In this document: piece after piece, positions 21,799 through 48,398 of the stretch
Position numbering within the stretch: position 1 is the first letter of the stretch
Layout: every line of letters begins with the position of its first letter
Source of the DNA: a virus
DNA: 64,000 nt
Virus record (IMG/VR): IMGVR_UViG_3300037467_001806
Span: 1 to 64,000 of that record
Direction: 5' to 3' (one strand)
The notes under the pieces: model-generated
The model's input: the letters and a program-made list of their open reading frames with translations, nothing else
What the model was told of the DNA's origin: nothing
The model's database searches: none
Position numbers and translations under genes: made by a program

Positions 21799-21817
21799 TC
21801 CTCACGTTAAAAGTTAG
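21799..21817 (-). repeat. conserved leader element copy L1
   Basis: Minus strand reads CTAACTTTTAACGTGAGGA, followed by TTGC-ATG. Confidence 0.7.
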
Positions 21818-21821
21818 GAAC

Positions 21822-21901
21822 GAGGTGGCTGGACTCGAACCAGAAACGGGTGCCGATCCTTTGGCACCCCCGAGCATACCCAGTGCTCAGTGCCCCACCC
21901 C
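21822..21901 (-). ncRNA. tRNA-like element (non-canonical; possible pseudo-tRNA or 5' leader structure)
   Basis: Minus strand has a 7-bp acceptor-like pairing GGGGTGG/CCACCTC, a D-arm-like GAGC-ACTGGGTAT-GCTC and the T-arm consensus GGTTCGAGTCC. The central stem is 7 bp with an 8-nt loop and there are extra nucleotides, so no canonical cloverleaf forms. Confidence 0.3.
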
Positions 21902-21909
21902 GAATTCTT

Positions 21910-21937
21910 ATTATACGCTGTTTCTTTACGTTGTCAA
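21910..21937 (-). promoter_or_regulatory. sigma70-type promoter P1
   Basis: Minus strand reads CTTGACAACGTAAAG..; TTGACA-16 nt-TATAAT. The predicted start falls about at the first base of the tRNA-like element. Confidence 0.65.
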
Positions 21938-23476
21938 GCCAACTTCGTCTTTGAACAGTTTCAACAACTCGTCCTGGGCCACAGCGCGCTTCCCCAGCAT
22001 GTGGTACACCCGCTTCTCGACCGGGCTGCCGCACAAGCTGACAATTGTCATGTCATGCACCTGTCCGGGCCGGTCCATACGCGCATTGGCTTGGTTCCAG
22101 ATTTCGAGCGAACTGACCGGCGTGAACCAGATCGTAGTCGACGCGCGTGTCAGTGTCAAGCCGTGTGCAGCAGTACGCGGTTGCATAATCAGCACCTTCA
22201 GAATATCGCTCTGCTGGAACAAGTTAATCATCAACTTGCGTTGGTCTTTTGACGTGTCGCCGTCAATGATGGCGCACTCGACACCATGCTTCTCCAAGAA
22301 CGCAGCGATCATCTTGATGCTGGCCTTGAAAGGTGCGAACACCAGCACCTTCTCGTCGCACTCGTGAATCACCGACAGCATTTCGTTCAGGCGCGAGGTC
22401 GCACGAAAGTCGATGACTTTGCCATCATCGCTATACACCGTACCGGCTGCGATCTGCAGCAGCTTGGACAACAGAACCCCTGCATTGGCCGCGGTGATTT
22501 TTTCGCCAGCCGCATACATGAGCATCTGCTTCTTCATGTCGTCGTAGTACTTCTTCTGCGTGGCGTCCATCGGCACTTCACGCATCTGATAAGTCAGCGG
22601 CGGCAGCTCGATACAGTCCTTCTTGGCGAAGCGAATCGCCGGTTGCAGCACAGAGAACACCTGCTGCTGAGCGTCGGGTTTGGGAACATAGGTGAAGTTG
22701 CTGATCTTGTGCATCACCTTGTCACGCCAGCCTGAAAAATACTTAGGCACGCGATCAGGGCACACCATCTTGGCCAAGCCGTAGGCTTGAAGCGGCGAGT
22801 TAGCCGCAGGCGTGCCGGTCAAGAGCCACAAGTTGGTGTTGGGCTTGATGAGGGATTGCAGCGCCTTGGAGCGGTCGGTGGTGGCGTTGCAGAACGCGCT
22901 GGCTTCGTCAACGATGATGAGGTCGAATTCGGCCCTGGCCAGCTCGATGCGTGAAGACTTCACGCAGTCGTGGTTGGCGATCACGAAGTCGGTGTTGGAT
23001 TCGATCAGCTTCTTGCGACGGGATGGGTCGCCTGTGGCCACGCACGCGGTGCGGTGGATGACAGTCTTATACAGGTCAGCCATCCAGGCAGTGTCAAGGA
23101 TGGACAGTGGCGCCAGGATCAGCGCTCGCCTAACCAGTTCCTGCTGCATGAGATAGTCGGCGGCCCACAGCACCGCACGGGTCTTGGCCGTGCCCATTTC
23201 GGACAGATTGAAACAGCGTTGGTGCAGCGTCATGAACTCCGCCATGGCGCGCTGGTGGGCCATGGGCGGCTCGCCGGGGAAGTGCGGGTAGTTGTATTTT
23301 TGGATGGGTGAGGGGACGCCCTTGAAACCCAGCTTGGTCAGCGTGCGTGCCGTGGCGATGTCCCACTTGCACAGCACTGTGCTGTCATCCACCGCCTTGG
23401 ATTTGCTGATGACAGAGGTCACCATGCCAGGGTTGCGCAGCTTGAGCAGCAACCCACGGTTGTCAACGATCTGCAC
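21926..23476 (-). CDS. SNF2/DEAD-like family helicase
   Basis: GTAKTRAVLWAA, ILAPLSILDTAW, the DEASAF (DEAH-type) box, and a C-terminal helicase domain (QPRTAAHGLTLT..). The start is GTG. Confidence 0.85.
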   Translation of the reverse strand: MQIVDNRGLLLKLRNPGMVTSVISKSKAVDDSTVLCKWDIATARTLTKLGFKGVPSPIQKYNYPHFPGEPPMAHQRAMAEFMTLHQRCFNLSEMGTAKTRAVLWAADYLMQQELVRRALILAPLSILDTAWMADLYKTVIHRTACVATGDPSRRKKLIESNTDFVIANHDCVKSSRIELARAEFDLIIVDEASAFCNATTDRSKALQSLIKPNTNLWLLTGTPAANSPLQAYGLAKMVCPDRVPKYFSGWRDKVMHKISNFTYVPKPDAQQQVFSVLQPAIRFAKKDCIELPPLTYQMREVPMDATQKKYYDDMKKQMLMYAAGEKITAANAGVLLSKLLQIAAGTVYSDDGKVIDFRATSRLNEMLSVIHECDEKVLVFAPFKASIKMIAAFLEKHGVECAIIDGDTSKDQRKLMINLFQQSDILKVLIMQPRTAAHGLTLTRASTTIWFTPVSSLEIWNQANARMDRPGQVHDMTIVSLCGSPVEKRVYHMLGKRAVAQDELLKLFKDEVGLTT

Positions 23477-23603
23477 GCGTTACCTCGAAGTATTTGAGTA
23501 CGCGTCTGATCGCGCGCATGGTGGTGCGCTTGTTCAGGTACTTGCGGTGTGGGACGCCTTTGCGCACGGTCGTCATCGCCCACCCGCGCCGCTGGCGTGT
23601 CAT
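23463..23603 (-). CDS. 46-aa highly basic peptide (below track cutoff)
   Basis: Hand translation gives MTRQRRGWAMTTVRKGVPHRKYLNKRTTMRAIRRVLKYFEVTRADR. ATGA coupling to the upstream gene; overlaps the SNF2 start by 14 nt. Confidence 0.4.
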   Translation of the reverse strand: MTRQRRGWAMTTVRKGVPHRKYLNKRTTMRAIRRVLKYFEVTRADR

Positions 23604-23857
23604 TTGATCGGTTTGTGATTGCTCTTGCGCTTGTAGGACAGGTTGGCGTGGGGCTCGACGACTTTGATGTTGCTCTTGGTGGTCTTGCCGCCGTTGGCCA
23701 GGGCTTTCACGTGTGCGACGTCTTTGCCCTTGCGGTCGATGCCTTCTGCATCAATCAGCTTGCGCGCTTCGTAGCGGTCGTGCCGGCGCTTCTTTTCGTA
23801 CGGCCGGTCAAGCTGCTGTTGATATTCTTTTTTGTAGTCGCGTACTTTCGGTGGCAT
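23600..23857 (-). CDS. small basic protein (weak HNH-like resemblance)
   Basis: Leader copy L2 sits immediately upstream. GKDVAHVKALANGGKTTKSNIKVVEPHAN is reminiscent of a minimal HNH motif. Confidence 0.6.
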   Translation of the reverse strand: MPPKVRDYKKEYQQQLDRPYEKKRRHDRYEARKLIDAEGIDRKGKDVAHVKALANGGKTTKSNIKVVEPHANLSYKRKSNHKPIK

Positions 23858-23861
23858 GAAG

Positions 23862-23879
23862 TCCTCACTTCAAAGTTAG
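23862..23879 (-). repeat. conserved leader element copy L2
   Basis: Minus strand reads CTAACTTTGAAGTGAGGA, followed by CTTC-ATG. Confidence 0.7.
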
Positions 23880-23957
23880 AAATGCCCCCGGCCTATATTC
23901 ACGCAGCGGGCCGGGTCAGGAGTTGGTCGTGCAGTTGCCGTTACCTGATGACGCTGT

Positions 23958-24083
23958 CTAGCAAACCAAGGGCGCCACGGGCCACGCCATCCACTTGACC
24001 ATCCACATGAGTGCCCACGAACCGATAATCAGGTAAGCGATCAAGCCCAGCGTCGTCAACGCGCCAAGGATCAAGTTTTTCAT
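23958..24083 (-). CDS. 41-aa hydrophobic membrane peptide (below track cutoff)
   Basis: Hand translation gives MKNLILGALTTLGLIAYLIIGSWALMWMVKWMAWPVAPLVC. ATGA overlap with the nuclease stop. Confidence 0.45.
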   Translation of the reverse strand: MKNLILGALTTLGLIAYLIIGSWALMWMVKWMAWPVAPLVC

Positions 24084-24754
24084 GCGTTCGTTTTCCCGTT
24101 GTGTTCGCAGCTCAGTACATCACACCATTTCTTGCACAGCCCGCTGGGGTTCGGCCCGAAGTTGTTGCGCTTTTTCGCTTCTTTGATGCGCTCGACTTCA
24201 TACATCCACCGCAACCACATCGCCTTCTCGTCTTTGCGCCAGAACGTCGCTGGTACGACACGATCAAGCATGAGGAACACCAGCCCGGTGGACACGACTT
24301 CAACCTCCGGATGCAGCTTGAAGATCATCAGCGCCATCAGTTCGTTCTGCTTGACTTCGGCGTACTTGAGGTTGCCCCCAGTCTTCCAGTCCAAGCAGCG
24401 CGCCTTGGCACCGTCAATCGTCATGAAGTCGGCCTTGCCACGGACAAAGTATTCCGGGCTGTAATAATCGCACGGTTGCATGTTGGAATCAAGAGCCATT
24501 TTCCGCTCGGCATACTTGACACCCGGCCAGCGCAGGACGGGCTCGATCTGCGGGATGAACTGCTTGAACTTGTCAGGTATAGGCGTCTGTTTTTTAATGA
24601 GATTTTCGATCGCCTCGTGCACCGCGTCACCAAATTTGGCTTCTTCGGACTGGACGTAGGGGATGTCTTTCAGTACATATTTATGCAGGTACTGACGCGG
24701 GCAGGTTTGGAAAGCTTTGACCTGGGAAAAGGTCCATTGAATTTCAGCGGGCAT
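24080..24754 (-). CDS. PD-(D/E)XK nuclease, Cas4/RecB-like with C-terminal Cys cluster
   Basis: ATG at 24754 after GGAGGACAACCCTC. QTCPRQYLHKY near the N-terminus, GKADFMTID..LDWKTG core, and C-terminal CKKWCDVLSCEH. Confidence 0.75.
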   Translation of the reverse strand: MPAEIQWTFSQVKAFQTCPRQYLHKYVLKDIPYVQSEEAKFGDAVHEAIENLIKKQTPIPDKFKQFIPQIEPVLRWPGVKYAERKMALDSNMQPCDYYSPEYFVRGKADFMTIDGAKARCLDWKTGGNLKYAEVKQNELMALMIFKLHPEVEVVSTGLVFLMLDRVVPATFWRKDEKAMWLRWMYEVERIKEAKKRNNFGPNPSGLCKKWCDVLSCEHNGKTNA

Positions 24755-24938
24755 GAGGGTTGTCCTCCAGCAAGCCAAGCACGAGGTTTCCGCCGCGGCC
24801 CATGGCCGTATTCACGCGCATGGCTGCCTTCGACAAGGCGTAAGCAGCGCCCATCAGGTAGATGCGGTACACCTCGGCACGTTCTTCTTCTGGATAGGTG
24901 TCTGCGTATGCCTGTGCAGCTTCTTCGATTTCACTCAT
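24744..24938 (-). CDS. hypothetical protein
   Basis: Internal ATG (MSEIEEAAQ..) after GGAAGGATAAAGTTG. 8-nt overlap with the upstream gene. Confidence 0.55.
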   Translation of the reverse strand: MSEIEEAAQAYADTYPEEERAEVYRIYLMGAAYALSKAAMRVNTAMGRGGNLVLGLLEDNPHAR

Positions 24939-25170
24939 CAACTTTATCCTTCCAGTAGTCACCCCACGGCCAACGCGGGCCGTCAGCGTCCGGCTCGGAT
25001 CGGGTCACGGCAGCCGAGCGAAGCATCAGCCAGTTGTAGATCGGGTAGGTAGCCTTGCCATAGAAATTCATCCACCAGCCATTCCATTTACCCCAGTCAG
25101 TTGGCTTGTTGATGTAATGACCTGCGTAGAACAGCACCCACGCCAACCAACGGCTCAATTCTGTTTTCAT
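24931..25170 (-). CDS. Trp-rich small protein, probably membrane-associated
   Basis: SD GGAG. LSRWLAWVLFYAGHY hydrophobic segment and many W residues. Confidence 0.6.
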   Translation of the reverse strand: MKTELSRWLAWVLFYAGHYINKPTDWGKWNGWWMNFYGKATYPIYNWLMLRSAAVTRSEPDADGPRWPWGDYWKDKVDE

Positions 25171-25370
25171 TCGTAGTCTCCATGCTTCTTGCCGCAGTAA
25201 TGTTCACCTACATCGTCTGTGGTGCGACCGCACGACAAACACACAGGCGTCGTCGCTTCATGCTTGATGGCGTTATCCTGCGCCCGGCGTTCCCCCTTCC
25301 AGAACACGCGCTTGTAATCCTTCAGGTGCTTCCACCATTGCGGTGAACCTGTGAGGGTTCCCTTCTTCAC
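25167..25370 (-). CDS. small Cys-containing protein (GTG start inferred)
   Basis: The upstream gene stops at 25372. A GTG at 25370 after GGTGG gives VKKGTLTGSPQWWKHL..CLSCGRTTDDVGEHYCGKKH. Confidence 0.45.
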   Translation of the reverse strand: MKKGTLTGSPQWWKHLKDYKRVFWKGERRAQDNAIKHEATTPVCLSCGRTTDDVGEHYCGKKHGDYE

Positions 25371-25371
25371 G

Positions 25372-25602
25372 TTAGCCACCTTTTGTCCTCCACTTCTCGT
25401 CAATGAAGTAGACCACGCGGTCACCCTGTTCGGCCCGCTCACCTAAGCCAATTATTAAGCAACAACCATTCACGTCGGCTCCAGCATCCAGTATTCGTAC
25501 ACAGTCGGCATATATTTCAGGCACCCCGTTCAAGGGGTCAGACATAATGCTGTATATGTCTGTGCGCAGCACAGAATTAGGGTAGACATAAATTTTCTTC
25601 AT
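25372..25602 (-). CDS. small protein, member of the L-x-A-[AG]...G-x-G paralogue family
   Basis: KIYVYP.. then CVRILDAGADVNGCCLIIGLGE. ATGA coupling. Confidence 0.6.
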   Translation of the reverse strand: MKKIYVYPNSVLRTDIYSIMSDPLNGVPEIYADCVRILDAGADVNGCCLIIGLGERAEQGDRVVYFIDEKWRTKGG

Positions 25603-26207
25603 GCTTTTTTCTTCGCCAGCAGGAACTCCCTGAATTTCTGCAGCTTCTCCTGGTCCTGCCTGTGCGCGTCGCGCTGGGCCGTGACTTCTGCCTTGATGCT
25701 GTCAATCTGAGCAAGCATGTCTTCCATTTCTTTAGCCAGGGTCCGCACGTAGGACTGCAACTTGTCCAGCTTGACCATGGTTTCGAACGACGGATCGGGA
25801 GGAAGCGCAGCGCGCTCGTCGCCCTTCACCGCGGGCTCCACCACCTTCAGATCAGCAAACGATTTGACAGGCTTGTTTTCCGGCAGGGCCACGACGACCG
25901 GCTTTGGCGCGGGTTCTGGTGCATGCATCTGCACGAAAATATCTGTGGCATCCAGCTCCGGTTCGCGGATCGGCACCTTGGCGTAGACGGCATGCTCTAC
26001 TTCTTTCACAAGGCCTGCTTCCGTGAGCGCCTTGAGGCATCCGTGCACCACGCGAAAGGCCATGGATACGCCCTTGTTCTCTAGTTCGGAAACGACGACA
26101 TGCACCGGCATTGAAGCGTCGTCGCCGCGCATGGCAGAGTAAACCTTCTTGGCTGATACGGTCTGTTCGTCGTATAGCTTTTCAAATTTCTTTTGTGTGA
26201 GAGCCAT
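25599..26207 (-). CDS. putative winged-helix DNA-binding protein with C-terminal coiled coil
   Basis: The N-terminal 90 aa look wHTH-like (VVSELENKGVSMAFRVVHGCLKALTEAGLVKEV). The C-terminus is heptad-like. Confidence 0.5.
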   Translation of the reverse strand: MALTQKKFEKLYDEQTVSAKKVYSAMRGDDASMPVHVVVSELENKGVSMAFRVVHGCLKALTEAGLVKEVEHAVYAKVPIREPELDATDIFVQMHAPEPAPKPVVVALPENKPVKSFADLKVVEPAVKGDERAALPPDPSFETMVKLDKLQSYVRTLAKEMEDMLAQIDSIKAEVTAQRDAHRQDQEKLQKFREFLLAKKKA

Positions 26208-26209
26208 GA

Positions 26210-31451: not shown

Positions 31452-31644
31452 CTTTATCGTCCTTGTGCCTATGTTCGTGAACTAACAAGTACACCAGCGC
31501 CGGCAGGAACATCACCAGCATCATCAACCCCCACAATGCGGCGATCTGCATGATCGTCAGCGTGCCGTCTGCAAAGAACAGACACCACCCTTCGAAAATC
31601 ATGAAAATCCACAGCACCCAAAAAACGAAAAACCTGTTGCTCAT
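31426..31644 (-). CDS. two-TM small membrane protein
   Basis: FFVFWVLWIFMIFEGWCLFF and IAALWGLMMLVMFLPALVYLLV. SD GGTAGGAG. Confidence 0.6.
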   Translation of the reverse strand: MSNRFFVFWVLWIFMIFEGWCLFFADGTLTIMQIAALWGLMMLVMFLPALVYLLVHEHRHKDDKDESHTRNT

Positions 31645-31668: not shown

Positions 31669-31686
31669 ATTCTCACTTCAAAGTTA
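31669..31686 (-). repeat. conserved leader element copy L3
   Basis: Minus strand reads CTAACTTTGAAGTGAGAA, followed by a 7-codon mini-ORF whose TGA overlaps the ATG of the next gene. Confidence 0.6.
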
Positions 31687-31690
31687 GTAA

Positions 31691-34139: not shown

Positions 34140-34157
34140 TCCTCACTTCAAAGTTAG
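34140..34157 (-). repeat. conserved leader element copy L4
   Basis: Minus strand reads CTAACTTTGAAGTGAGGA (identical to L2), followed by TTGCT-ATG. Confidence 0.7.
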
Positions 34158-36810: not shown

Positions 36811-36827
36811 CCTAACTTGGAAGTTAG
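36811..36827 (-). repeat. leader element variant L5 (perfect palindrome, terminator-like)
   Basis: Minus strand reads CTAACTTCCAAGTTAGG followed by TTTTTAAA. The TAA stop of the AAA+ gene lies inside it. Confidence 0.5.
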
Positions 36828-37888
36828 ACTGTAAAGAAGTGGGACAGGTCTTTCACCTGCTTGACCATGGCCTTGTGGTGCGCAGCCCACGACGACTTGC
36901 TGGGCATGCACAGTATTTTGTTGATAAAGAGCGCCTGCAGTTCCTCGTTGAACTCTTTGCGCGTCACGTACTTCAAGACGTTTTCCAGGGTGTCCTTTTC
37001 CACCCGCATGATGAGGTTGTAGATCAGCAGGATGCGCGCCGTCACATCCTTGGGCACTTCGGCCTTTGCCGGGTCAGCCGTGATTGCCGAGATATGCGGC
37101 AGCTTGTCGTTCATCGCCACGAAAGCCAGCAAATCCGCAGCGGCGGCCGAGCCAACAGTGCCGACCAACGAAGCGTACAGCGTGTTCTCGCTGACCAGTT
37201 CCTTGCACTTCAACTGCGTGCTGACCTTTTCCAAGGAGCGCGGCGTGACGACCTTGTTGCGCGCGATTTTCGGGTGAAAGATGTACTTGTTCTCACCGTG
37301 GGGGTCGTCGTGGTACGACTTCAACACGTCCGGGTATTGATCCACAAACGCCATCACCGTGGGCTCGATGCTGTTCTCCGCGGCCCAGGCCAGCCATTCA
37401 TCCGGGGTCGGCTTGCGCATGTTGAACAGCACGAAACGATCGGTCTGGTGCGGCAGAATCTTGTCGCCCAGCCCTTCGTCGGGCATGTTGCCCGTAGCGA
37501 TGACGATGCTGTCCGGGTGCAGCTTGGTCGAACCCAAGCGCCGGTCTTCGATCACGGGCAGCAGCATGTTCTGCGCTTCGCGTGAGCCCTTGGTGAACTC
37601 ATCGATCACGAGCACGACAGGCCGGCTGGTATGCAGCTTGAAAACTTCGTTCGGGAAGTACTCGGTGCAGCGGCGCTCACGGTCAATCACCGGCATCGAA
37701 GTGTCGCCCAGGGACATATTGGCGCAATCGATGTAGGTGTAATCCATGTTCAGCTTGGCGCCAATCGTGCGGCCCACTGCGGTCTTGCCGATGCCCATTT
37801 CCCCACCGATCATCGCGGTCAACTTGGTGCCGTTGGCCACAATCCAGCTCACCATTTCGTCGTGATTCACGAAGAGTTTGTCGCTCAT
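36824..37888 (-). CDS. AAA+ ATPase, MoxR/CobS-like
   Basis: Walker A GGEMGIGKT, Walker B VLVIDEF, then REAQNMLLPVIEDRRL. Confidence 0.8.
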   Translation of the reverse strand: MSDKLFVNHDEMVSWIVANGTKLTAMIGGEMGIGKTAVGRTIGAKLNMDYTYIDCANMSLGDTSMPVIDRERRCTEYFPNEVFKLHTSRPVVLVIDEFTKGSREAQNMLLPVIEDRRLGSTKLHPDSIVIATGNMPDEGLGDKILPHQTDRFVLFNMRKPTPDEWLAWAAENSIEPTVMAFVDQYPDVLKSYHDDPHGENKYIFHPKIARNKVVTPRSLEKVSTQLKCKELVSENTLYASLVGTVGSAAAADLLAFVAMNDKLPHISAITADPAKAEVPKDVTARILLIYNLIMRVEKDTLENVLKYVTRKEFNEELQALFINKILCMPSKSSWAAHHKAMVKQVKDLSHFFTV

Positions 37889-37894: not shown

Positions 37895-37912
37895 TCCTCA
37901 CTTTCAAGTTAG
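37895..37912 (-). repeat. conserved leader element copy L6
   Basis: Minus strand reads CTAACTTGAAAGTGAGGA, followed by ATTAAA-ATG. Confidence 0.7.
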
Positions 37913-37961
37913 GTTATTGCTTAAACGCTGCGTTGGCCCTATGCCAATCACAGTAACTACA

Positions 37962-37990
37962 ATTATACAGGTGATACTTGTCGTTGTCAA
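37962..37990 (-). promoter_or_regulatory. sigma70-type promoter P3
   Basis: Minus strand reads TTGACAACGACAAG..; TTGACA-17 nt-TATAAT. Confidence 0.65.
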
Positions 37991-38004
37991 GTGTAAATAC
38001 TTTG

Positions 38005-39829: not shown

Positions 39830-39847
39830 TCCTCACTTTCACGTTAG
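39830..39847 (-). repeat. conserved leader element copy L7
   Basis: Minus strand reads CTAACGTGAAAGTGAGGA, followed by TGTC-ATG. The TAA of the upstream peptidase gene is the TAA inside CTAAC. Confidence 0.7.
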
Positions 39848-40959
39848 AAGTTACACACTTCATCGAACATGTCCGCCAACAGATCGTCGGCGTCGATGTA
39901 CTCCGACATGGCGGCCAGCCCGATGTACTTGTCACACAGATCAGGCGTGATCTTGTTGGCGTTTATGAGCCGCGTCGCCTGATCCGAGTCGTCCGGCATT
40001 ATAGCCTGCGCCATGGCAGTGACAAGTGACGATACGGAGCCTTCGATCGCCGAATCAAGGCAATCCAGCACGTAGTTCATGTCGTCATCGTCAAGACAAC
40101 CGCCCGTGGTCGACGTCTTCCAGCCACTTGGCATAGAGAACACTTCCACATCCTTCGGGTCACGCACGACCGGCAAGGCTTCCCAGTCAAGCGTTGCCGC
40201 GGCCTGCGCCAGCGTAACGTAGTGATGAAGGTTCAGCTTCTCACGGTCGGTATGCTCCTTGTCATACCCCACGCTGATGTTGGTGCACTCGGGGATGAAG
40301 TCGACGAACTCCGCCGTGTCGGTGTAAATCCCCGAGTCATCAGGTGAATACATGAACCACTCATCCTGCTTGTTGAGCGCACCAGCCAGCGCGTTAGCGA
40401 AACTGTCGGAACAGCAGCGCCCCCAGCCCTGATGGGAAATGATGCTGTCCATCGCACGCCGGTCAAACGCAATGGCCCGGTCAAACTGCAGCAGCAAGTC
40501 ACCATGCCGGTCCGCCAGATAGCGCGCACCGATGCCACCCTTCTCTTCACCCTGGGTGAAGATGTAGTAGCCACGCACCTCTGCGTGCAGCAGGTGCATG
40601 AGCATCGCCACGCCGGCGCCGTCATCAGCGCCAAGCACATCGCCGCAGGCTTCCCAGTGCGTGCGGGTCTTGCGAACGCGGTTATACCCTTCCAGCCGGT
40701 GCACAGTGTCCACATGGGCCACGAACAGGGTGCGGCTGCCTTCGCCGCGCGCGTCCACGTGCAGGTTGCCGACGGAATCGCGCCACGCCTTTTGACCAGT
40801 TCTTATTACCGCCGGCAGCATATCCATCAGCCACGACGTAAACTTGGCCGTGCTCTTGGTGCCATGCGGCCGCTTGGTCGACAAGGCGCGTTGCAATACC
40901 TTGTACAAGATACTGCTGGTGTGCAGGCGTGCGACAGGGGCGATATCAAACGTGCTCAT
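39844..40959 (-). CDS. zinc metallopeptidase-like protein (M28/M20/M42-type co-catalytic site pattern)
   Basis: FVAHVDTVH, LGADDGAGVAMLMH and FTQGEEKGGIGARY match the H-x-D / D / EE ligand order of aminopeptidase-type enzymes. Confidence 0.65.
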   Translation of the reverse strand: MSTFDIAPVARLHTSSILYKVLQRALSTKRPHGTKSTAKFTSWLMDMLPAVIRTGQKAWRDSVGNLHVDARGEGSRTLFVAHVDTVHRLEGYNRVRKTRTHWEACGDVLGADDGAGVAMLMHLLHAEVRGYYIFTQGEEKGGIGARYLADRHGDLLLQFDRAIAFDRRAMDSIISHQGWGRCCSDSFANALAGALNKQDEWFMYSPDDSGIYTDTAEFVDFIPECTNISVGYDKEHTDREKLNLHHYVTLAQAAATLDWEALPVVRDPKDVEVFSMPSGWKTSTTGGCLDDDDMNYVLDCLDSAIEGSVSSLVTAMAQAIMPDDSDQATRLINANKITPDLCDKYIGLAAMSEYIDADDLLADMFDEVCNF

Positions 40960-42335: not shown

Positions 42336-42352
42336 TCCTCACTTTCAGTTGG
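42336..42352 (-). repeat. leader element copy L8a
   Basis: Minus strand reads CCAACTGAAAGTGAGGA, followed by CTTT-ATG. Confidence 0.6.
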
Positions 42353-42373: not shown

Positions 42374-42390
42374 TCTCACTTAGAAGTTAG
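42374..42390 (-). repeat. leader element copy L8b (inside the 3' end of the upstream gene)
   Basis: Minus strand reads CTAACTTCTAAGTGAGA. The upstream TGA stop is the TGA of AAGTGAG. Confidence 0.55.
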
Positions 42391-42687
42391 TTTCTCCATC
42401 TGCTCCCTTGGCAGTCGGTACGCTTGATGCGCGTATCTCAGGCCAGAGCTCATTAAGGTGGACGCCCCGTAGCCGGGTATATAGGCAGATAGCTTTCCCC
42501 CCTCACAATCGGCCTCCAGGGCGGCATCGAGCATCAGCATGCGCTCCCACACCACGATGGGTAGAGGTTGCCCATCGGTGTACCGTATTTCTAGAGAACC
42601 CAACCCCTTAACGGGGAACTTGGTAGGCGTGTCGTTGCGTTCTTCCGCGTCGACGTAGAAGACTGTCCATGAATCACAGAGCGGCAT
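42376..42687 (-). CDS. small protein, paralogue family member
   Basis: Core RMLMLDAALEADCEGGKLSAYIPGYGA. Confidence 0.55.
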   Translation of the reverse strand: MPLCDSWTVFYVDAEERNDTPTKFPVKGLGSLEIRYTDGQPLPIVVWERMLMLDAALEADCEGGKLSAYIPGYGASTLMSSGLRYAHQAYRLPREQMEKLTSK

Positions 42688-43242: not shown

Positions 43243-43260
43243 TCCTCACTTTCACGTTAG
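43243..43260 (-). repeat. conserved leader element copy L9
   Basis: Minus strand reads CTAACGTGAAAGTGAGGA (identical to L7), followed by TTCT-ATG. Confidence 0.7.
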
Positions 43261-43272: not shown

Positions 43273-43286
43273 GAAGTACGTACTTC
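43273..43286. promoter_or_regulatory. perfect 14-bp palindrome (operator or second hairpin)
   Basis: GAAGTACGTACTTC, flanked by TTT on both sides, between the terminator and leader L9. Confidence 0.4.
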
Positions 43287-43293
43287 AAACCGC

Positions 43294-43319
43294 AAATAAA
43301 AAATCGGGACGCATCCCGA
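43294..43319 (-). terminator. intrinsic terminator immediately downstream of promoter P2
   Basis: Minus strand reads TCGGGA-TGCG-TCCCGA followed by TTTTTTATTT. Confidence 0.6.
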
Positions 43320-43331
43320 CTCAGAACCACC

Positions 43332-43360
43332 ATTGTACACCTGTAGCTTTACGTTGTCAA
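43332..43360 (-). promoter_or_regulatory. sigma70-type promoter P2
   Basis: Minus strand has CTTGACAACGTAAAG (the same 15-mer as P1); TTGACA-17 nt-TACAAT. Confidence 0.65.
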
Positions 43361-43369
43361 GTCACACCC

Positions 43370-43883: not shown

Positions 43884-44301
43884 CTTCGTCGTAGTCACCC
43901 AAGTCGTAGAAGATATAGCCGTAGTATGGGCCTCTGCGGCCAACGCCTTTGATGGACGAGTAGCCGTCGTCATCACATGCAGCGTCAAGCAGCAGCATTT
44001 CGACCCTGAAGCGCTTCGGATAACGCCGCCAGTAATACCTGTGCCGCTTCCCATCTTTGAGCACGGTAGATTTCAATTCAGGGCGGAGCAAGCACCACAA
44101 GGCATGGACCATAGCGGTCGCGCCCGCTCCAAACGCAATGCCCTTCAGTATCGCAAGCGCAACAGTAACTGCCGTGGAATTGTCCGGTGCGTCTTGGAAG
44201 TAGCGTGCCACTGCGTATAGCGCGACGGCGCCGCCTGCAAATAGGCCTTCGGGCGCGACTTCGTCCATGCGCCGCCAGGCGCGTTTTAACCAGTTCTTCA
44301 A
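43873..44301 (-). CDS. membrane protein with C-terminal paralogue-family domain (TTG start inferred; alternative ATG at 44268)
   Basis: Leader L10, then TTG at the usual spacing. Two hydrophobic segments, then EMLLLDAACDDDGYSSIKGVGR. Confidence 0.45.
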   Translation of the reverse strand: MKNWLKRAWRRMDEVAPEGLFAGGAVALYAVARYFQDAPDNSTAVTVALAILKGIAFGAGATAMVHALWCLLRPELKSTVLKDGKRHRYYWRRYPKRFRVEMLLLDAACDDDGYSSIKGVGRRGPYYGYIFYDLGDYDEDGY

Positions 44302-44306
44302 TTGAA

Positions 44307-44324
44307 TCCTCACTTACAAGTTAG
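44307..44324 (-). repeat. conserved leader element copy L10
   Basis: Minus strand reads CTAACTTGTAAGTGAGGA. The upstream TAA stop lies inside CTAAC. Confidence 0.7.
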
Positions 44325-44569
44325 GTTTGCTTGAGTGCGATAACCACGCTACGAATGACGATGCGCCGCAGCTTGGCATCTTGGTTGCACCATCGCACTG
44401 TGTCGTTATGCTGAAGTCGTTGGACGAGATAGATCACTTGCTGTCTGTGCGCAGACATGCTCAATACAGCGTCAGGTTTCCAGGAACAGATAGAGGGGTT
44501 TGCAGGGTCTTGCTGTGTAGCAACAGGGCAATCGGCGCAGTGGTGCGCGTGCTGCGGGCGTGACGGCAT
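44321..44569 (-). CDS. hypothetical small protein, first ORF downstream of promoter P6
   Basis: ATG at 44569 after GGAGACTT (MPSRPQHAHHCADCP..). Lower coding quality than its neighbours. Confidence 0.45.
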   Translation of the reverse strand: MPSRPQHAHHCADCPVATQQDPANPSICSWKPDAVLSMSAHRQQVIYLVQRLQHNDTVRWCNQDAKLRRIVIRSVVIALKQT

Positions 44570-44670
44570 AAGTCTCCAATCCTTCAATGCTTGTTGTTGG
44601 ATCAAATTCTTGTGTCGTTTGTAGGATTAGTTTGACCTCTGTTGTAGGAGGCTTGCCGACACTGCCTGTC

Positions 44671-44698
44671 ATATTAAGCGCGTGCATGTTTCTGTCAA
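44671..44698 (-). promoter_or_regulatory. sigma70-type promoter P6
   Basis: Minus strand has TTGACA-16 nt-TAATAT. Confidence 0.55.
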
Positions 44699-44705
44699 GC
44701 GTTAA

Positions 44706-44951
44706 TTACAGTTGCTCTGAGTCACGCTTTGCAAACGTAAACCATTCGCTGCCGTCACAGCATTGACGGAGATAAGTGCCCACACCTACGATCGACGCAA
44801 TTTCCCAATCGGGTGAGACGCCGGGCGCAGCCGCGGCGCGCAGCAGCTCTATGCTCGTGCTCCAGTCACCCGGTGGTTTAAACGGTGACATCGCGTCCCC
44901 AACGTAGTGGCCGTTTACCCACGTATCGCTCACCCTATAAAACGTCTTCAT
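44706..44951 (-). CDS. small protein, paralogue family member
   Basis: Core SIELLRAAAAPGVSPDWEIASIVGVGT; leader L11 upstream. Confidence 0.65.
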   Translation of the reverse strand: MKTFYRVSDTWVNGHYVGDAMSPFKPPGDWSTSIELLRAAAAPGVSPDWEIASIVGVGTYLRQCCDGSEWFTFAKRDSEQL

Positions 44952-44956
44952 TCACA

Positions 44957-44975
44957 TCCTCACTTTACAAGTTAG
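44957..44975 (-). repeat. conserved leader element copy L11
   Basis: Minus strand reads CTAACTTGTAAAGTGAGGA. The upstream stop TAA lies in the spacer. Confidence 0.7.
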
Positions 44976-45213
44976 TTTGTTCTTTACTCTGTAAATAAAA
45001 CGTCTCGTGCGTGGCTCTGAAGTAGGAGCCCACACCTTCAATGACGGCCAGCCCGCCCCACGAACCCTTTGGCTGCGCCGCCGCGCGCAGTATGTTCATG
45101 GCATCCTCGTATTCTGCTGGCGCCTCGTTTATGAACTTCATGCGTTCAGCAGGGACCGAGTAGTAGCCAAACTGTTTGTCATATACACACCCCAGATATA
45201 CATACAATTGCAT
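44965..45213 (-). CDS. small protein, paralogue family member
   Basis: LYVYLGCVY.. with core AMNILRAAAQPKGSWGGLAVIEGVGS. Confidence 0.65.
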   Translation of the reverse strand: MQLYVYLGCVYDKQFGYYSVPAERMKFINEAPAEYEDAMNILRAAAQPKGSWGGLAVIEGVGSYFRATHETFYLQSKEQTNL

Positions 45214-45248
45214 CGTGTCCTCTCACTTAACAATGTCAATTAACAACA

Positions 45249-45277
45249 ATTATACGCTTGTTGTTACTACTTGTCAA
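45249..45277 (-). promoter_or_regulatory. sigma70-type promoter P4 (tandem TTGACATTGACA)
   Basis: Minus strand has TTGACA-17 nt-TATAAT. A second TTGACA lies directly upstream (45278-45283). Short leader to the ATG at 45213. Confidence 0.6.
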
Positions 45278-45527
45278 TGTCAAGCGGTAGCCACACGAGT
45301 GTGCAGTTATGTACCACCAAGACCTGACCGTACCCAGCGATACACGCTACGCCGTCATCGTCCACGGCTGCAAGCAAGACCGGCAGGCGCTCATCCATCA
45401 CGGCCTTGATAGCATCAGGCAGGGCGCAGTAGTGCTGGCTATAAGATTTAAACCCTCCTTCGTATCGGTTCTTGTCCGGCAAATACTTTGCATCCTGGTA
45501 GACGATGACGGGTTTATGTGTAGCCAT
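45267..45527 (-). CDS. small protein, paralogue family member
   Basis: ATG at 45527, 1 nt after the upstream TGA. Core LPVLLAAVDDDGVACIAGYGQ. Confidence 0.55.
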   Translation of the reverse strand: MATHKPVIVYQDAKYLPDKNRYEGGFKSYSQHYCALPDAIKAVMDERLPVLLAAVDDDGVACIAGYGQVLVVHNCTLVWLPLDIDK

Positions 45528-45528
45528 A

Positions 45529-45912
45529 TCACACCTTCGCCCGCGAGTAGCGGTAGTAGTTATCAAGTTCAAGCTCTGATGTGGGGTAAGACACGATGAA
45601 GTTCGGGTCGTACTCAAGCTGCTTGGTTGCAGCGAAGTACTTCAGATTAGCTCTGTCTGTCACCACCACATAGGTCAGTTGCGGCCCGACGATATAGGCC
45701 ACGCACGCATTACGTTTCAAGTCACGCCCCGTCTTCAGCCTCCATACCTCATGGCTGGTCATCACTATGCGCTGCCGCCGCTTGCTCCATGCGTTTGACG
45801 GTGCGCCGTAGAAGAAACGTACGATGCCGCTGTTACTCGCGTCCATCACATCGCTACTGCCGAGCTGAATTATTTTCACAGGCTCTTTGCACTCCAGTAT
45901 TACAGCACTCAT
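45529..45912 (-). CDS. hypothetical protein
   Basis: ATGA coupling; 127 aa. Confidence 0.65.
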   Translation of the reverse strand: MSAVILECKEPVKIIQLGSSDVMDASNSGIVRFFYGAPSNAWSKRRQRIVMTSHEVWRLKTGRDLKRNACVAYIVGPQLTYVVVTDRANLKYFAATKQLEYDPNFIVSYPTSELELDNYYRYSRAKV

Positions 45913-46667
45913 TTGTTGTCCCCTTCATCCAGTGCGTCCCAACCCTTCGGTTTCTCACGTAGAAAGTTAGGATTGTTCTTCGGGTCGATGATCTTGGCGT
46001 TAGCGATCATCTGTCCCAGCCCCGCCAAGAACTTCTCGCGCTCTTCAGGTGTGCGCGCAGCCACTTGGTCGCGTGCGAGCGCCTTAGCTGCCACCCCTGG
46101 GTCCGCCTTGTCAATCGTGATGGCTACCTGCACAGCGGCCGAGTGCATCCAAGATCGGGAACGCTTGGCCTTGATTCCATCCAGCGTAACAGTGCGCATC
46201 AGCGCAGCACCCAAGGCGTGCAGGTAGCTGTCCTGTATTTCGGTGGTTCGCACTGTATGCTTCAAGCCGCCAGATGCATCTTGTGTGATGGCGCCTTTGC
46301 TGACATGGACTTCATAACGCGCCAGATGATGGCGCAGCGCAGTCAAGGCCTGAGCCGCGGTGATGGTGACGGAGGGATCGGGATGGCCCGGCAAGGGGAT
46401 GGCATGTGGATCAGATAGCAAGTCTTGTTCAAGTATGGTGGGCTTGAGTCGCGCCCTTGCATAACGTCCGATGCGTCCAGAATGGGCTTTTCGCAGGCAT
46501 CCGCACGATTTGGTATTGCCTGCACTGAGCGAATAGACAATATATTCCTTGGTTGTGCCGCACGAGCAGCGGGCCGCCCAGTAATGCGGTTTTACAGATG
46601 GATACAGAAGGGTGAGTTCGCCGAAGCGATCCCCAGCTTGGAATTTGGTTTGGTTTGTGCGTGGCAT
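45909..46667 (-). CDS. putative zinc-finger DNA-binding protein, first gene left of the AT-rich region
   Basis: N-terminal WAARCSCGTTKEYIVYSLSAGNTKSCGC (a CxC..CGC pattern seen in phage DNA-binding/HNH-associated modules). Confidence 0.6.
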   Translation of the reverse strand: MPRTNQTKFQAGDRFGELTLLYPSVKPHYWAARCSCGTTKEYIVYSLSAGNTKSCGCLRKAHSGRIGRYARARLKPTILEQDLLSDPHAIPLPGHPDPSVTITAAQALTALRHHLARYEVHVSKGAITQDASGGLKHTVRTTEIQDSYLHALGAALMRTVTLDGIKAKRSRSWMHSAAVQVAITIDKADPGVAAKALARDQVAARTPEEREKFLAGLGQMIANAKIIDPKNNPNFLREKPKGWDALDEGDNK

Positions 46668-46697
46668 GTCAGTTGTTCAACGGAAATAGGGCTTTGT

Positions 46698-46726
46698 ATA
46701 GTATATGTTTAGGTACTCGATGTCCA
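46698..46726 (-). promoter_or_regulatory. candidate promoter P7
   Basis: Minus strand has TGGACA-17 nt-TACTAT, about 25 nt upstream of the ATG at 46667. Confidence 0.35.
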
Positions 46727-46824
46727 CTATTTCGGAAATTGGCACGCGTATTGTCAACTGAGAGCTTGCTGCAAGTGATTGATGTGTAAGGCTTATTCGG
46801 AATGTGTTGTGTTATTTGATTATT

Positions 46825-46964
46825 GTAACGGGCTAAAAAAATTTGTGAGAGGGTATACGGACCCACACGATTAAAGCCCCATTAGCCTGTTACGAAATGT
46901 AATTTGACAACACTCCACAAAAATTCTCACGGGGGGGCTTTAATTTCTTATTTAGTCCCGTTAC
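46825..46964. repeat. nested imperfect inverted repeats in the AT-rich intergenic region
   Basis: Outer arms GTAACGGGCTAAA (46825-37) and TTTAGTCCCGTTAC (46951-64). Inner arms ATTAAAGCCCC (46870-80) and GGGGCTTTAAT (46934-44). Followed by a TATATATATAAATATA tract and TAG repeats. Confidence 0.55.
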
Positions 46965-47223
46965 ACTATATATATAAATATAGATTTAGTTAGTAGTAGT
47001 AGGTAAGTGCTTGATTTTTATAGGGATATGCATCCCATGCCTTGTAGCCGACGCACGTGCCAATCTCCTGAGACACAGCGTACGACCACACATACATTTA
47101 ATATGATTATCAATTAGGTATTACGTCGCGCGGAACTGGTTAATTTTCCTGGGGCGCATGCCGCCCGGCTTGACAGCGGCATGCATGACTTGTCTATGTG
47201 AAGATGCCCACGAAAACGCGGGC

Positions 47224-47251
47224 AATAAAAAAGCCCGGACTAGCCGGGCTT
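47224..47251 (-). terminator. intrinsic terminator ending the 48.3-47.3 kb leftward unit
   Basis: Minus strand reads AAGCCCGG-CTAGT-CCGGGCTT followed by TTTTTTATT. The plus-strand reading has a weaker GTTGTTG tail. Confidence 0.7.
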
Positions 47252-47269
47252 GTTGTTGTCATGCTGTGC

Positions 47270-47449
47270 CTACTTCCATTGCGTATGCTTGGGATTCACA
47301 GTGTCAAGAATACGCTTGTCGATGCGCACATTCTCCAGATGCCAGTCGCGCCACTGCGGATCGGTATTCGCCTTTTCCTCTTCGGCGTGCATGTCGCGCC
47401 GGATCGCGTCGACCATTGCCGTCTTTTCGTAGCCAAACAGACCGTTCAT
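47270..47449 (-). CDS. 59-aa hypothetical protein (below track cutoff)
   Basis: Hand translation gives MNGLFGYEKTAMVDAIRRDMHAEEEKANTDPQWRDWHLENVRIDKRILDTVNPKHTQWK. Leader L13 upstream and a terminator downstream. Confidence 0.5.
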   Translation of the reverse strand: MNGLFGYEKTAMVDAIRRDMHAEEEKANTDPQWRDWHLENVRIDKRILDTVNPKHTQWK

Positions 47450-47453
47450 GATT

Positions 47454-47472
47454 TCCTCACTTCCGAAGTTAG
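47454..47472 (-). repeat. conserved leader element copy L13
   Basis: Minus strand reads CTAACTTCGGAAGTGAGGA, followed by AATC-ATG. It is preceded by CTTGTCAACGTAAAC, which resembles the P1/P2 -35 box. Confidence 0.7.
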
Positions 47473-47509
47473 TTTACGTTGACAAGACGGGCTTGCGCCC
47501 GTCCGGCCA

Positions 47510-48268
47510 TTACTTGCATTTGGCTTTGCGCTGCGATTCAGCCTTGAAGACGTCCTGCGCTTCATCCAGCACGTCTTCGCACATGGCCAGCACGTTCAGG
47601 AACGGCGGTTCGACTTCACCCTTGACGTTTTCTTTCAGGTACTTTGACAAGAATGCAACAAGCGGCGCCACGCCTTTCAAGCTTTCGGTGTGGGCAGGCG
47701 CGTCAGATGCGCCCACAAGCGGTTTTTCGCCTTCGTCGCCACCCTCGCTTACCTGAGCGGCTTTTTTCGCTTGTGCGGCCGTTTTGGCGGCTTTGAGCGC
47801 GGCCGCTTTCAGGTTGCCGTACAGATCGAGCGGTTGCGCGCCGCGGCCGCGCACATATTCGCGGATGCGTGACAGATAGTTATCACGGGTACCCTTGGCG
47901 ATCTCTTCCAAGCCTGCGCCCATGCGCGGCGCATTGATGGCGTCGACAAAGATCGTCCACAGTTCGCCCGGGTTGGACTGCGACGGTGCCTTGAGCATGT
48001 CGCCCGTGGCGCAATCCTTGTCGCACGTCAGGCCAAGCTCGATCATGCGATCCAGCGCATTCTTGACAACAACAATCGTCTCTTCTTTGCCGATGACCTG
48101 ATCGACGTCACGCATGCCGATGGCTTCGCCGGTTTCGGCCATCAACACGCCAAGCTTGGCGGCGACTTCGTCAGCGCTGGCTTTGCTGCGCGACTTGGCG
48201 GACAGGGATTTGGTCAAGGACTGGACGGCGGAACCGATGACGGATTCGGATTTGACATTGGCTTTCAT
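47510..48268 (-). CDS. hypothetical 252-aa protein with Ala/Lys-rich central segment
   Basis: ATG at 48268 (MKANVKSESV..); the track ORF starts upstream at 48379. Contains KAAALKAAKTAAQAKKAAQ. Confidence 0.65.
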   Translation of the reverse strand: MKANVKSESVIGSAVQSLTKSLSAKSRSKASADEVAAKLGVLMAETGEAIGMRDVDQVIGKEETIVVVKNALDRMIELGLTCDKDCATGDMLKAPSQSNPGELWTIFVDAINAPRMGAGLEEIAKGTRDNYLSRIREYVRGRGAQPLDLYGNLKAAALKAAKTAAQAKKAAQVSEGGDEGEKPLVGASDAPAHTESLKGVAPLVAFLSKYLKENVKGEVEPPFLNVLAMCEDVLDEAQDVFKAESQRKAKCK

Positions 48269-48332
48269 GATGAACCTCACATAAAGAAGTTGATGGCTTA
48301 ACTCGCTTGGCTGGATTGCCTTGCGAGATTCC

Positions 48333-48361
48333 ATAGTAGCGCAATCACTTGTCATTGTCAA
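48333..48361 (-). promoter_or_regulatory. sigma70-type promoter P5
   Basis: Minus strand reads TTGACAATGACAAG..; TTGACA-17 nt-TACTAT. Confidence 0.55.
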
Positions 48362-48379
48362 GCTGGCAGGGCGCAGCAA

Positions 48380-48398
48380 CTAACGTGGCAAGTGAGGA
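48380..48398 (+). repeat. leader element copy on the plus strand (L15)
   Basis: Plus strand reads CTAACGTGGCAAGTGAGGA, divergent from P5. There is no ATG at the usual spacing. Confidence 0.5.

Follow-up and report, generated by a model that had tools for sequence, protein, structure and literature searches.

A dyad element joined to the Shine-Dalgarno sequence marks early genes in a lineage of uncultured tailed phages and may be the site of a shared regulator

Why would a phage place the same short sequence, a Shine-Dalgarno (SD) sequence joined to an upstream half that is nearly its inverted copy, before one unrelated early gene after another? The question is raised by a 64,000-nucleotide (nt) stretch of viral DNA (positions 1 to 64,000 of the IMG/VR record IMGVR_UViG_3300037467_001806; hereafter, the window), in which an element of the form CTAACTT-N(2-3)-AAGTGAG(GA) occurs in 14-15 copies, none of them outside the minus-strand block of early genes and the control region of that block. 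The window covers most of the ~75-kb genome of an uncultured tailed phage, as judged from identical proteins on a 75,501-bp contig from the Joint Genome Institute (JGI), with late genes on the plus strand (48.4-64 kb and 1-15.6 kb) and ~70 early and replication genes on the minus strand, running from 48.3 down to 16.7 kb. The answer that we favor, with a probability of roughly one half, is that the element is a shared recognition site at which early cistrons are controlled in trans by a regulator specific to the lineage and probably encoded by the phage itself.

The pattern CTAACTT-N(1-4)-AAGTGAGGA has six exact matches in the 64-kb window, all on the minus strand, and none in 100 dinucleotide-preserving shuffles, and a repeat finder recovers the same family independently (as D2, D3, and D6); the repeat, first noticed by a model in a sequence-only reading of the window, is therefore real. 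With one mismatch allowed per half, a relaxed scan finds the 13 full copies listed in that reading and an unlisted, degenerate one at 45954 (Table 1). Parts of the list needed correction: the copy at 42336 had been counted as full and is now classed as partial, the sites at 45218, 48274, 33723, and 34700 are partial only, and the copies at 39830 and 43243, which are indeed identical, had been misnumbered as the seventh and ninth. Spacers in the window are mixed in length, with 2 nt in nine copies and 3 nt in five, and no sequence is conserved upstream of the element. Two near-matches, at 11073-11088 in the putative tape-measure gene and at 18925-18941 in the primase gene, are intragenic, depart from the consensus at two positions, and have no start codon; they are most likely chance occurrences or relics.

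In the 10 copies that are clear ribosome-binding sites (RBSs), GAGGA lies 4-6 nt from the start codon, where a working SD would be expected and as had been proposed; of two other copies reported as preceding start codons, the one at 31669 stands before just a short open reading frame, and the one at 48380 is not a convincing RBS. On a crude gene map, nearly all early genes that start after a real noncoding gap have the element or a degenerate copy, and early genes that overlap their upstream neighbor have ordinary SDs embedded in coding sequence. Late genes in the window, including those preceded by a gap, use (A)AAGGAG and never the element. Reasoning from the sequences, UGAGGA base-pairs with the 16S rRNA 3' end about as well as the late AAGGAG does, so SD strength does not explain the element. 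The stop codon of the upstream gene falls inside the element in four of the ~14 copies, three times as the TAA within CTAAC and once as the TGA within AAGTGAG. These overlaps are exactly as first described, and with just four cases the earlier proposal that the element couples termination to reinitiation is overstated.

Thirteen further related contigs have the same element, giving 88 curated copies in 14 genomes. They were retrieved by pattern scans of IMG/VR (3300012942_000044, 3300014820_000008, and 3300007790_000262, hereafter phages B, C, and E) and by protein-guided search, which brought in six contigs through the conserved first early gene (L383-L388) and four through PolA (L390-L393). 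Proteins of these relatives are 35-67% identical to those of the window, and phage B has 19 copies in 36 kb. In the eight genomes that cover both halves, early DNA contains 62 matches in 99.7 kb, as against a single match in 93.6 kb of late DNA. Beyond the three related contigs, the exact-pattern IMG/VR scans returned just single matches at chance level, and among the matches listed in an exact-pattern metagenome scan there were phage B again and no new relative. The motif is absent from relatives retrieved through TerL (53%-60% identical).

Several copies are retained at orthologous positions: before the gene that follows the SNF2 helicase in the window, phage B (37613), and phage C (also L181; 10874), where the proteins are 35%-52% identical; before the ATPase gene in the window and L383; and before the second early gene in eight genomes (the window, B, L383, L384, L385, L386, L387, and L388). 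The intergenic sequence around these orthologous copies cannot be aligned, and the flanking proteins are 35%-60% identical. Retention of the element amid unalignable flanks is purifying selection on far more than the SD and agrees with the earlier remark that conservation extends well beyond what ribosome binding needs. Further, nine of the genomes examined have a copy, in arbitrary orientation, upstream of the early -35 box or in the control region; the equivalents in B, E, L383, L385, L386, L387, and L388 are mostly perfect palindromes. Several more distant phages, with PolA 40%-45% identical, have perfect palindromes of their own just upstream of early-gene SDs (Table 1, last row). One of these, GTCTAATTAGAC, occurs 10 times in 7.5 kb, and another, CTAACAATTGTTAG, is flanked by TGACCA repeats; both share with GTCCTAATTAGGAC and the window's element a CTAA...TTAG core. 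The repeated 8-mers of TerL relatives are clustered iterons and thus distinct from the element. In L059, L114, L076, and L047, iterons (TGTTCCAA, AATTCCAA, TAGAACAA, and ATACGTCA) are clustered in one intergenic region in the manner of an origin or operator array. Another TerL relative, L087 (593-3944), has a 35-nt leader, TAACAT(A/G)GTGCA-N6-TGCACGAAGTTAAC-N-AGGAG, before several genes, together with AACTTCGT iterons.

Within the element, 79 of 88 copies have the 3' arm AAGTGAG, which hardly varies and forms the SD with the next GA. Of the 5' arms, 47 read CTAACTT and 17 read CTCACTT; lineage variants include CTAACGT, CTAATTT, and TT(A/C)ACTT. Variants can affect both arms, as in L384 (CTAACGT/ACGTGAG) and L390 (TTCACTT/AAGTGAA), with two-sided changes at three pairs (C-G to T-A in L390; C-G to A-T; T-A to G-C in L384). 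The complementarity of the two halves at six of seven pairs, to which the sequence-only reading had drawn attention, is real and does not amount to a stable hairpin: the minimum free energy of the core at 37°C is 0.0 kcal/mol in 12 of the 13 minus-strand copies of the window, and folding is limited to perfect palindromes (-3 to -12 kcal/mol with flanks). An A-G mismatch occupies the third pair of the would-be stem in 60 of the 88 copies, and the remaining departures mostly disrupt pairing (eight G-A, five U-C, and three A-A). Because the cores are unfolded, covariation stays at the level of shuffled data, and one-sided changes are mostly pair-breaking, the conserved feature is the dyad symmetry of the consensus and not a stable RNA hairpin.

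The copies fall into two positional classes. Sixty-two of the 88 are fused to a start codon, mostly ATG, and ~30% have none. Perfect palindromes are mostly free-standing (12 of 17 are not start-fused), and imperfect copies are mostly fused (57 of 71, with 14 not fused; Fisher p = 1.1e-4). Free-standing copies occur upstream of the main early -35 box or in the divergent control region (nine of the genomes examined; 48380-48396 in the window), directly before T-runs (36812 and 42375 in the window, 18518 and 20914 in B, 10703 in L388), and at unit ends or in long noncoding regions (B 43073, L393 21205, L384 11308). A few copies with a diverged 3' arm (L384 13952, L390 13674, L392 918) add a second AAGTGAGG that acts as the SD, so the dyad is one requirement and the SD another, separable from it. 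Within a genome, spacers are of nearly uniform length (1 nt in L392, L393, and E; 2 nt in L383, L390, L391, and B; 3 nt in C and L385), with one spacing in at least 80% of copies in 11 of the 14 genomes; B ranges from 2 to 4 nt, and L387 and L388 vary. Spacer sequence varies overall, though it is often repeated within a genome ("a" six times in L393, "ta" four times in L383, "ca" four times in L384).

The perfect palindrome followed by T5 at 36811/36812 was found as described. The copies in the window do not have the makeup of an intrinsic terminator, a G+C-rich stem with a U-tract after it: just two (36812 and 42375) have T-runs, two of the seven stem pairs are G-C, and a terminator scan calls neither. 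An antisense promoter or terminator role was rejected, as the antisense hairpin has a C-U mismatch and there is no consistent -10 box. Helical phasing of the control-region copy relative to the -35 box (gaps of 18, 19, 18, 13, and 29 nt) was dropped because several promoters could not be placed reliably. A resemblance to integron attC-like core sites (RYYYAAC/GTTRRRY) was noted and set aside; the element is far shorter than attC, and no integrase was seen.

Table 1. Copies of the element in the window, other mapped features, and palindromes of more distant relatives
Feature	Coordinates	Strand	Remarks
Copy CTAACTTttaACGTGAGGA	21799..21817	-	4 nt before ATG 21794; 144-aa gene downstream of SNF2 helicase
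Copy CTAACTTtgAAGTGAGGA	23862..23879	-	4 nt before ATG 23857; 85-aa gene
Copy CTAACTTtgAAGTGAGaat	31669..31687	-	Nearest ATG (31664) opens just a short open reading frame (ORF); 72-aa gene at 31644, 20 nt downstream, has its own AGGAG
Copy CTAACTTtgAAGTGAGGA	34140..34157	-	5 nt before ATG 34134; 77-aa gene
Perfect palindrome CTAACTTccAAGTTAG, then GTTTTT	36812..36827	-	Overlaps TAA stop of AAA-ATPase gene (ORF 36824-37888); terminator-like class; core -3.2 kcal/mol; following gene (ATG 36781) uses separate GGAGG
Copy CTAACTTgaAAGTGAGGA	37895..37912	-	6 nt before ATG 37888; MoxR-like AAA ATPase
Copy CTAACGTgaAAGTGAGGA	39830..39847	-	4 nt before ATG 39825; includes TAA stop of ORF 39844-40959; preceded by partial extra 5' half (GTAACTT)
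Degenerate copy CCAACTGaaAGTGAGGA	42336..42352	-	4 nt before ATG 42331; 461-aa gene; partial (CCAACTGAAAGTGAGGA)
Copy CTAACTTctAAGTGAG, then ATTTTT	42375..42390	-	Includes TGA stop of ORF 42376-42687; no start codon of its own
Copy CTAACGTgaAAGTGAGGA, identical to 39830	43243..43260	-	4 nt before ATG 43238; ~65 nt downstream of promoter 43360-43332
Copy CTAACTTgtAAGTGAGGA	44307..44324	-	5 nt before TTG 44301; includes TAA stop of ORF 44321-44605
Copy CTAACTTgtaAAGTGAGGA	44957..44975	-	5 nt before ATG 44951; 81-aa gene
Degenerate copy CTAACTTtctACGTGAG	45954..45970	-	Within 3' end of HNH-like ORF 45909-46667; no start codon
Copy CTAACTTcggAAGTGAGGA	47454..47472	-	4 nt before ATG 47449; 59-aa second early gene
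Degenerate element CAACTTctttatGTGAGG	48274..48291	-	Before ATG 48268; conserved first early gene, 252 aa
Control-region copy, CTCACTTgccACGTTAG on early-gene strand	48380..48398	+	18 nt upstream of main early promoter -35; inverted orientation
Main early sigma-70-type promoter, TTGACA-17-TACTAT	48333..48361	-	Repeat families D5 and D9, promoter scan
Similar sigma-70 promoters	45249-45277, 43332-43360, 39998-40025, 37962-37990	-	Promoter scan
TerL	52073-53635	+	Late block
Palindromes of distant relatives: GTCTAATTAGAC, GTCCTAATTAGGAC, CTAACAATTGTTAG, TCCACG-N4-CGTGGA	L186 (1-7500), L188, L226, L049/L050		

Sharp conservation, dyad symmetry, lineage-specific arms and spacing, early specificity, and the promoter-proximal copy call for recognition by something other than the anti-SD sequence, and it is for this reason that we favor a regulator site; among the roles listed in the sequence-only reading, it is still the best. 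That more distant relatives have palindromes of other sequence at comparable positions also counts for it. Under this reading, the element would be a dyad recognition sequence that overlaps the SD, composed of CT(A/C)AC(T/G)T, a 1-4-nt spacer, and the inverted A(A/C)GT(G/T)AG, with its 3' half (GUGAGGA) supplying the SD. The putative regulator would mark and coordinately control those early cistrons that begin after a noncoding gap, most plausibly by shutting them off, and would have one additional site upstream of the main early promoter. In RBS-fused copies, the symmetry-breaking A (CTAAC, not CTCAC) would keep the SD unpaired in the mRNA and would sometimes provide the TAA stop. Perfect palindromes would be placed where the SD is not needed and, when followed by a T-run, could double as small terminator hairpins. 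Here we infer the existence and identity of the trans-acting factor, the nucleic acid that it binds, and the sign of its regulation.

The factor could bind the element as double-stranded DNA, the site then being akin to an operator or "stoperator", or as mRNA at the RBS, as RegA does, and we lean modestly toward DNA. Near-fixed spacer length per genome combined with free spacer sequence suggests a site for a dimeric protein, and action on DNA is favored by this spacer behavior together with the dyad symmetry and the perfect palindromes that are not RBSs, by the look of RBS-fused copies as palindromes spoiled to leave the SD unpaired, and by the promoter-upstream copy, which is apparently untranscribed, lying downstream of a terminator (48699-48682). 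Action on mRNA is pointed to by SD fusion in 70% of copies even in large gaps, by the mixed spacers of the window, B, L387, and L388, and by the constant A-G asymmetry. Multicopy repressor sites include the conserved inverted repeats of phiC31 and the scattered C1 operators of P1. The element resembles such stoperator-type systems in having many copies of a short site in short intergenic regions with a lineage-specific consensus, one site being at the early promoter and others inside operons. The stoperators of L5 and Cluster A phages are likewise multicopy repressor sites inside phage operons (cited in PMC3203893). Unlike the element, stoperators lack symmetry, are found in both arms of the genome, and stand apart from SDs. 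No repressor, integrase, or lysogeny module was recognized among the window proteins scanned. For the mRNA alternative, the T4 regulators RegA and RegB offer a precedent: RegA sites are poorly conserved A/U-rich stretches, and RegB needs GGAG. By analogy, the element might serve the same class-specific control of many early mRNAs at the RBS; it differs from RegA sites in being a sharp 16-nt dyad and from the RegB target in that its SD, GUGAGGA, contains no GGAG. The RegB-type cleavage once suggested for it is thereby disfavored, and no homolog of RegA or RegB and no other nuclease was recognized among the ~40 proteins scanned.

Several observations weigh against a trans-acting regulator. Covariation between the half-sites among related phages, the comparison that the sequence-only reading had proposed as a check, is not significant, with shuffles scoring as high in 359 of 500 and 67 of 500 cases in two tests. 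The mixed spacers in the window, B, L387, and L388 are awkward for a rigid DNA-binding dimer; SD fusion of 70% of copies, even at gaps of 131 and 222 nt, is not required by a DNA roadblock; early promoters do not overlap element sites; and the likeness to the enhancer and SD of T7 gene 10, described below, would have to be coincidence. Among ~40 early proteins compared with Pfam, PHROG, and NCBIfam, no candidate regulator was found save a weak helix-turn-helix (HTH) signal at 19621-19896, and the first early protein, predicted to adopt a novel, all-helical fold, has no significant PDB fold or sequence match.

These two proteins deserve description in their own right. The first early gene (47510-48268, minus strand) encodes a 252-aa protein that is kept in all element-bearing relatives, with the motif MLKAP...VDAINAPR...TRDNYLSRIR..PLDLFGN and an AlphaFold model of predicted local distance difference test (pLDDT) score 76; the gene has its own distinct RBS (CACTTAC..GGAG). 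The protein is a candidate for the trans-acting factor. The second, a 91-aa protein with the weak HTH signal (19621-19896, minus strand), is encoded directly upstream of the DUF927 primase gene and is kept in all relatives, including the L183 phage, in which no element copy was found in the 22 kb examined.

The explanation that comes closest to rivaling a regulator site dispenses with any phage factor: the element would be an autonomous translation-initiation cassette in which an A/U-rich enhancer of the "epsilon" type (the 5' half) stands 4 nt before the SD (the 3' half) and acts in cis via the ribosome (S1 or rRNA), a standard strong RBS reused for early genes preceded by a gap, and translation might in addition be coupled to the upstream stop through the weak pairing potential between the halves. 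The epsilon sequence of T7 gene 10 is established by experiment as an enhancer of translation, with its mechanism still under debate (PMC8748333), and the likeness to it is close: after TAACTT(T) come AAG and a purine-rich SD, and the 9-mer stands at an equal distance, 4 nt, from the SD core. The 9-mer TTAACTTTA is matched at 6-7 of nine positions by the window's CTAACTT(T), at eight by the L383 copies (CTAACTTTA-AAGT-GAGGA), and at all nine in L388 and L390. Both sequences are A/U-rich, the element being set in a GC-richer genome. Fusion to mostly ATG start codons, the unfolded dominant form, which leaves the SD open, and the upstream stop codons within four window copies also fit. T7 epsilon, however, is known in essentially a single copy, at the late major capsid gene, as against 14-20 copies confined to early genes here; and T7 has no free-standing palindromic copies, unlike the present lineage. 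A cis-acting cassette would leave unexplained the absence from late structural genes, the ~30% of copies with no start codon, the presence of a copy before the early promoter in nine examined genomes, and the joint arm changes in L384 and L390 together with the unrelated palindromes at the same position in distant relatives. Further, experiments did not support the model in which epsilon pairs with 16S rRNA, and the enhancer was dispensable in an alphaproteobacterium (PMC8748333). We regard this explanation as possible and rather unlikely.

The element could also be a recombination boundary, a portable junction of early gene cassettes shuffled between coinfecting phages, with its conservation reflecting spread and homogenization; the idea is compatible with the others, and as the explanation of the element it is improbable. 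The variable early regions of the window and phage B have no homologous genes, yet each has 8-10 copies before unrelated small ORFs, and copies flank a nonhomologous replacement between the ATPase and DUF2201 genes in the two phages. The homogeneity of spacer length, and often spacer sequence, within a genome fits copy-and-paste or gene conversion. Against this, 16-18 bp is short for homologous recombination, and the promoter-proximal copy, the orthologous conservation in a stable replication module, and the fusion to the SD would all go unexplained. The promoter early stem-loops (PeSLs) of T4-type phages were reportedly proposed by Arbiol and colleagues in 2010 to mediate cassette shuffling. 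Like PeSLs, the element is a repeated regulatory motif flanking unrelated small ORFs of a hyperplastic early region; PeSLs are longer and comprise a promoter and a real stem-loop, whereas the element has no promoter and its common form has no stable stem.

Slightly less probable still is an RNA stem-loop acting as an RNase processing or cleavage site, a stabilizer, or an attenuator by which the SD is sequestered. In its favor, the inverted repeat of the consensus has a central segment that varies in length as hairpin loops can, some one-sided changes yield a U-G wobble on the sense strand (L390, L385, L388), perfect copies reach -5.5 to -12 kcal/mol and four of them precede T-runs, and imperfect copies reach -2 to -6 kcal/mol at 20°C. 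These points are set against the unfolded cores at 37°C, the usual A-G mismatch and mostly pair-breaking departures, and the lack of significant covariation already described. It is the RBS-fused copies that avoid perfect pairing (p = 1e-4), the stems are too short for RNase III and offer RegB no GGAG, and Rfam and tRNA scans matched no known RNA family.

Early-region promoters are of the canonical sigma-70 form, TTGACA-N17-TATAAT, and stand 40-140 nt upstream of elements at variable distance, in keeping with the initial view that the element is not itself a host promoter. A near-consensus family with conserved flanks (ACTTGACAACG...TATAAT) lies at 37955-37992, 43325-43362, 45242-45279, 48326-48363, and 21918-21941, for which reason early transcription, on sequence grounds, appears to rely on unmodified host RNA polymerase. 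That the element is instead the promoter of a phage-directed transcription system, with the SD as its initially transcribed part, is hardly credible, even though T7 promoters 11-13 nt from start codons offer a precedent (by annotation, a conserved element ending in an SD-like GGGAGA) and TAACTT fits the TAnnnT skeleton of a -10 hexamer, for no RNA polymerase or sigma factor was recognized among the proteins scanned, the sequence before the element shows no conservation, promoters are not characterized by dyad symmetry, the early region already has canonical sigma-70 promoters, and transcripts would begin inside or just before the SD.

The closest functional counterpart is the start-associated sequence (SAS) of Cluster K mycobacteriophages, which with its extended form (ESAS) was described in 2011 (PMC3203893) and whose function is still unknown in 2025 (Front Microbiol, PMC12699233). 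As with SAS, there are 10-20 copies per genome restricted to the nonstructural half, a pattern that our scans of the window and its relatives reproduce; SAS lies 3-7 nt before mostly ATG starts with the SD inside, comparable to the 4-6-nt spacing of the element; the upstream stop codon is occasionally within the motif; and the downstream genes are small and unrelated. ESAS resembles the element in its imperfect inverted repeats with a variable spacer and a subcluster-specific consensus. The differences are equally clear. The element does not match the asymmetric 13-bp SAS consensus GGGATAGGAGCCC with up to two mismatches and has no sequence relationship to it; SAS is nonpalindromic, its inverted repeats being a separate upstream 17-bp pair, whereas here one element of 16-18 nt makes up the whole inverted repeat, with the SD as its 3' arm. 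The present lineage is also set apart by its perfect palindromes that stand free and by a promoter-proximal copy, and the phage is not a Cluster K actinobacteriophage, host phylum and phage lineage being unrelated. The element thus works like SAS and is not a member of the SAS family. Its likeness to Cluster K and T7 sequences, its lineage-wide and early-specific occurrence, its two classes, and the promoter-upstream copy all go beyond the sequence-only reading.

The phage itself has no cultured near relatives by megablast of 8 kb against INPHARED. Beside TerL, the late block encodes a 921-aa putative portal protein and a 1877-aa putative tape-measure protein; among early products are a DUF927 primase-helicase, an SNF2 helicase, a PD-(D/E)XK nuclease, PolA, a DUF2201/VWA protein, a MoxR-like AAA ATPase, and many small ORFans. 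TerL is 45%-50% identical to those of siphophages of Pelagibacter, cyanobacteria, and "Gammaproteobacteria", the best PolA relative is 32% identical, and the TerL and PolA of the window are closest to uncultured aquatic or Pseudomonadota phages. Distant PolA relatives occur in metagenome-assembled genomes of Pseudomonadota, Oxalobacteraceae, and Burkholderiaceae, one of them within a 4-Mb chromosome, so there are temperate relatives, and the host may reasonably be guessed to be a betaproteobacterium. TerL is enlarged in L387 (3704-6262) and L384 (5788-8322), to ~850 aa with Hom_end/LAGLIDADG matches, and PolA is enlarged (930-976 aa) among homologs P0019, P0040, P0042, P0068, and P0090, which suggests intein or homing-endonuclease insertions in some relatives.

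Two noncoding regions of the early block and its surroundings may also be recorded. The divergent control region (~48400-49300) contains a strong minus-strand terminator, CCCCGGCTTCGGCCGGGG followed by a run of seven T, at 48699-48682; the plus-strand ORF 48411-49145 there has no homologs in any library searched and is probably not a gene. In the corresponding control regions of L383-L388 (~490 nt upstream of the first early gene), an AT-rich box resembling a promoter is followed downstream by a GC-rich motif, cccccggacNggggtggggtc, that is conserved among them, an arrangement that suggests a small noncoding transcript; Rfam gave no match here. The other region, of ~560-700 nt, comes after the second early gene and the terminator of that gene (47251-47231); it lies at 46670-47230 in the window (minus-strand reading) and contains AT-rich simple repeats, ctactactacta and tatatttatatatata, and a conserved GGAACTGGTTAGG-like box. 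Its position is conserved in L383 (11022-11772), L384 (11163-11869), L385 (11198-11808), L387 (9270-9940), and L388 (10967-11703), and it could be a replication origin or a noncoding RNA locus.

Start-linked repeats are known from phage early regions, the Cluster K SAS of 2011 being one example, and none of them has a demonstrated mechanism. The present lineage provides a cleaner case, with a sharp motif in 88 copies from 14 genomes, variants of arm and spacer, two positional classes, and restriction to early genes. The natural arm and spacer variants make a covariation screen for the cognate factor feasible and reporter tests informative. Further, near-identity to the T7 gene 10 enhancer and SD links the question to a widely used and mechanistically debated expression element. 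In its boldest form, which we hold to be unlikely, the element and a putative protein would constitute a coevolving "early-cistron code" of a large uncultured lineage, with the dyad read on DNA, at the early promoter and at unit boundaries, as well as at the RBS of every early cassette, and the A-G asymmetry acting as a designed switch between open SD and hairpin; if true, such a code would also explain Cluster K SAS and T7 "epsilon" as one class of start-linked control. Of practical use, the motif marks early genes and true start codons in an abundant group of uncultured phages.

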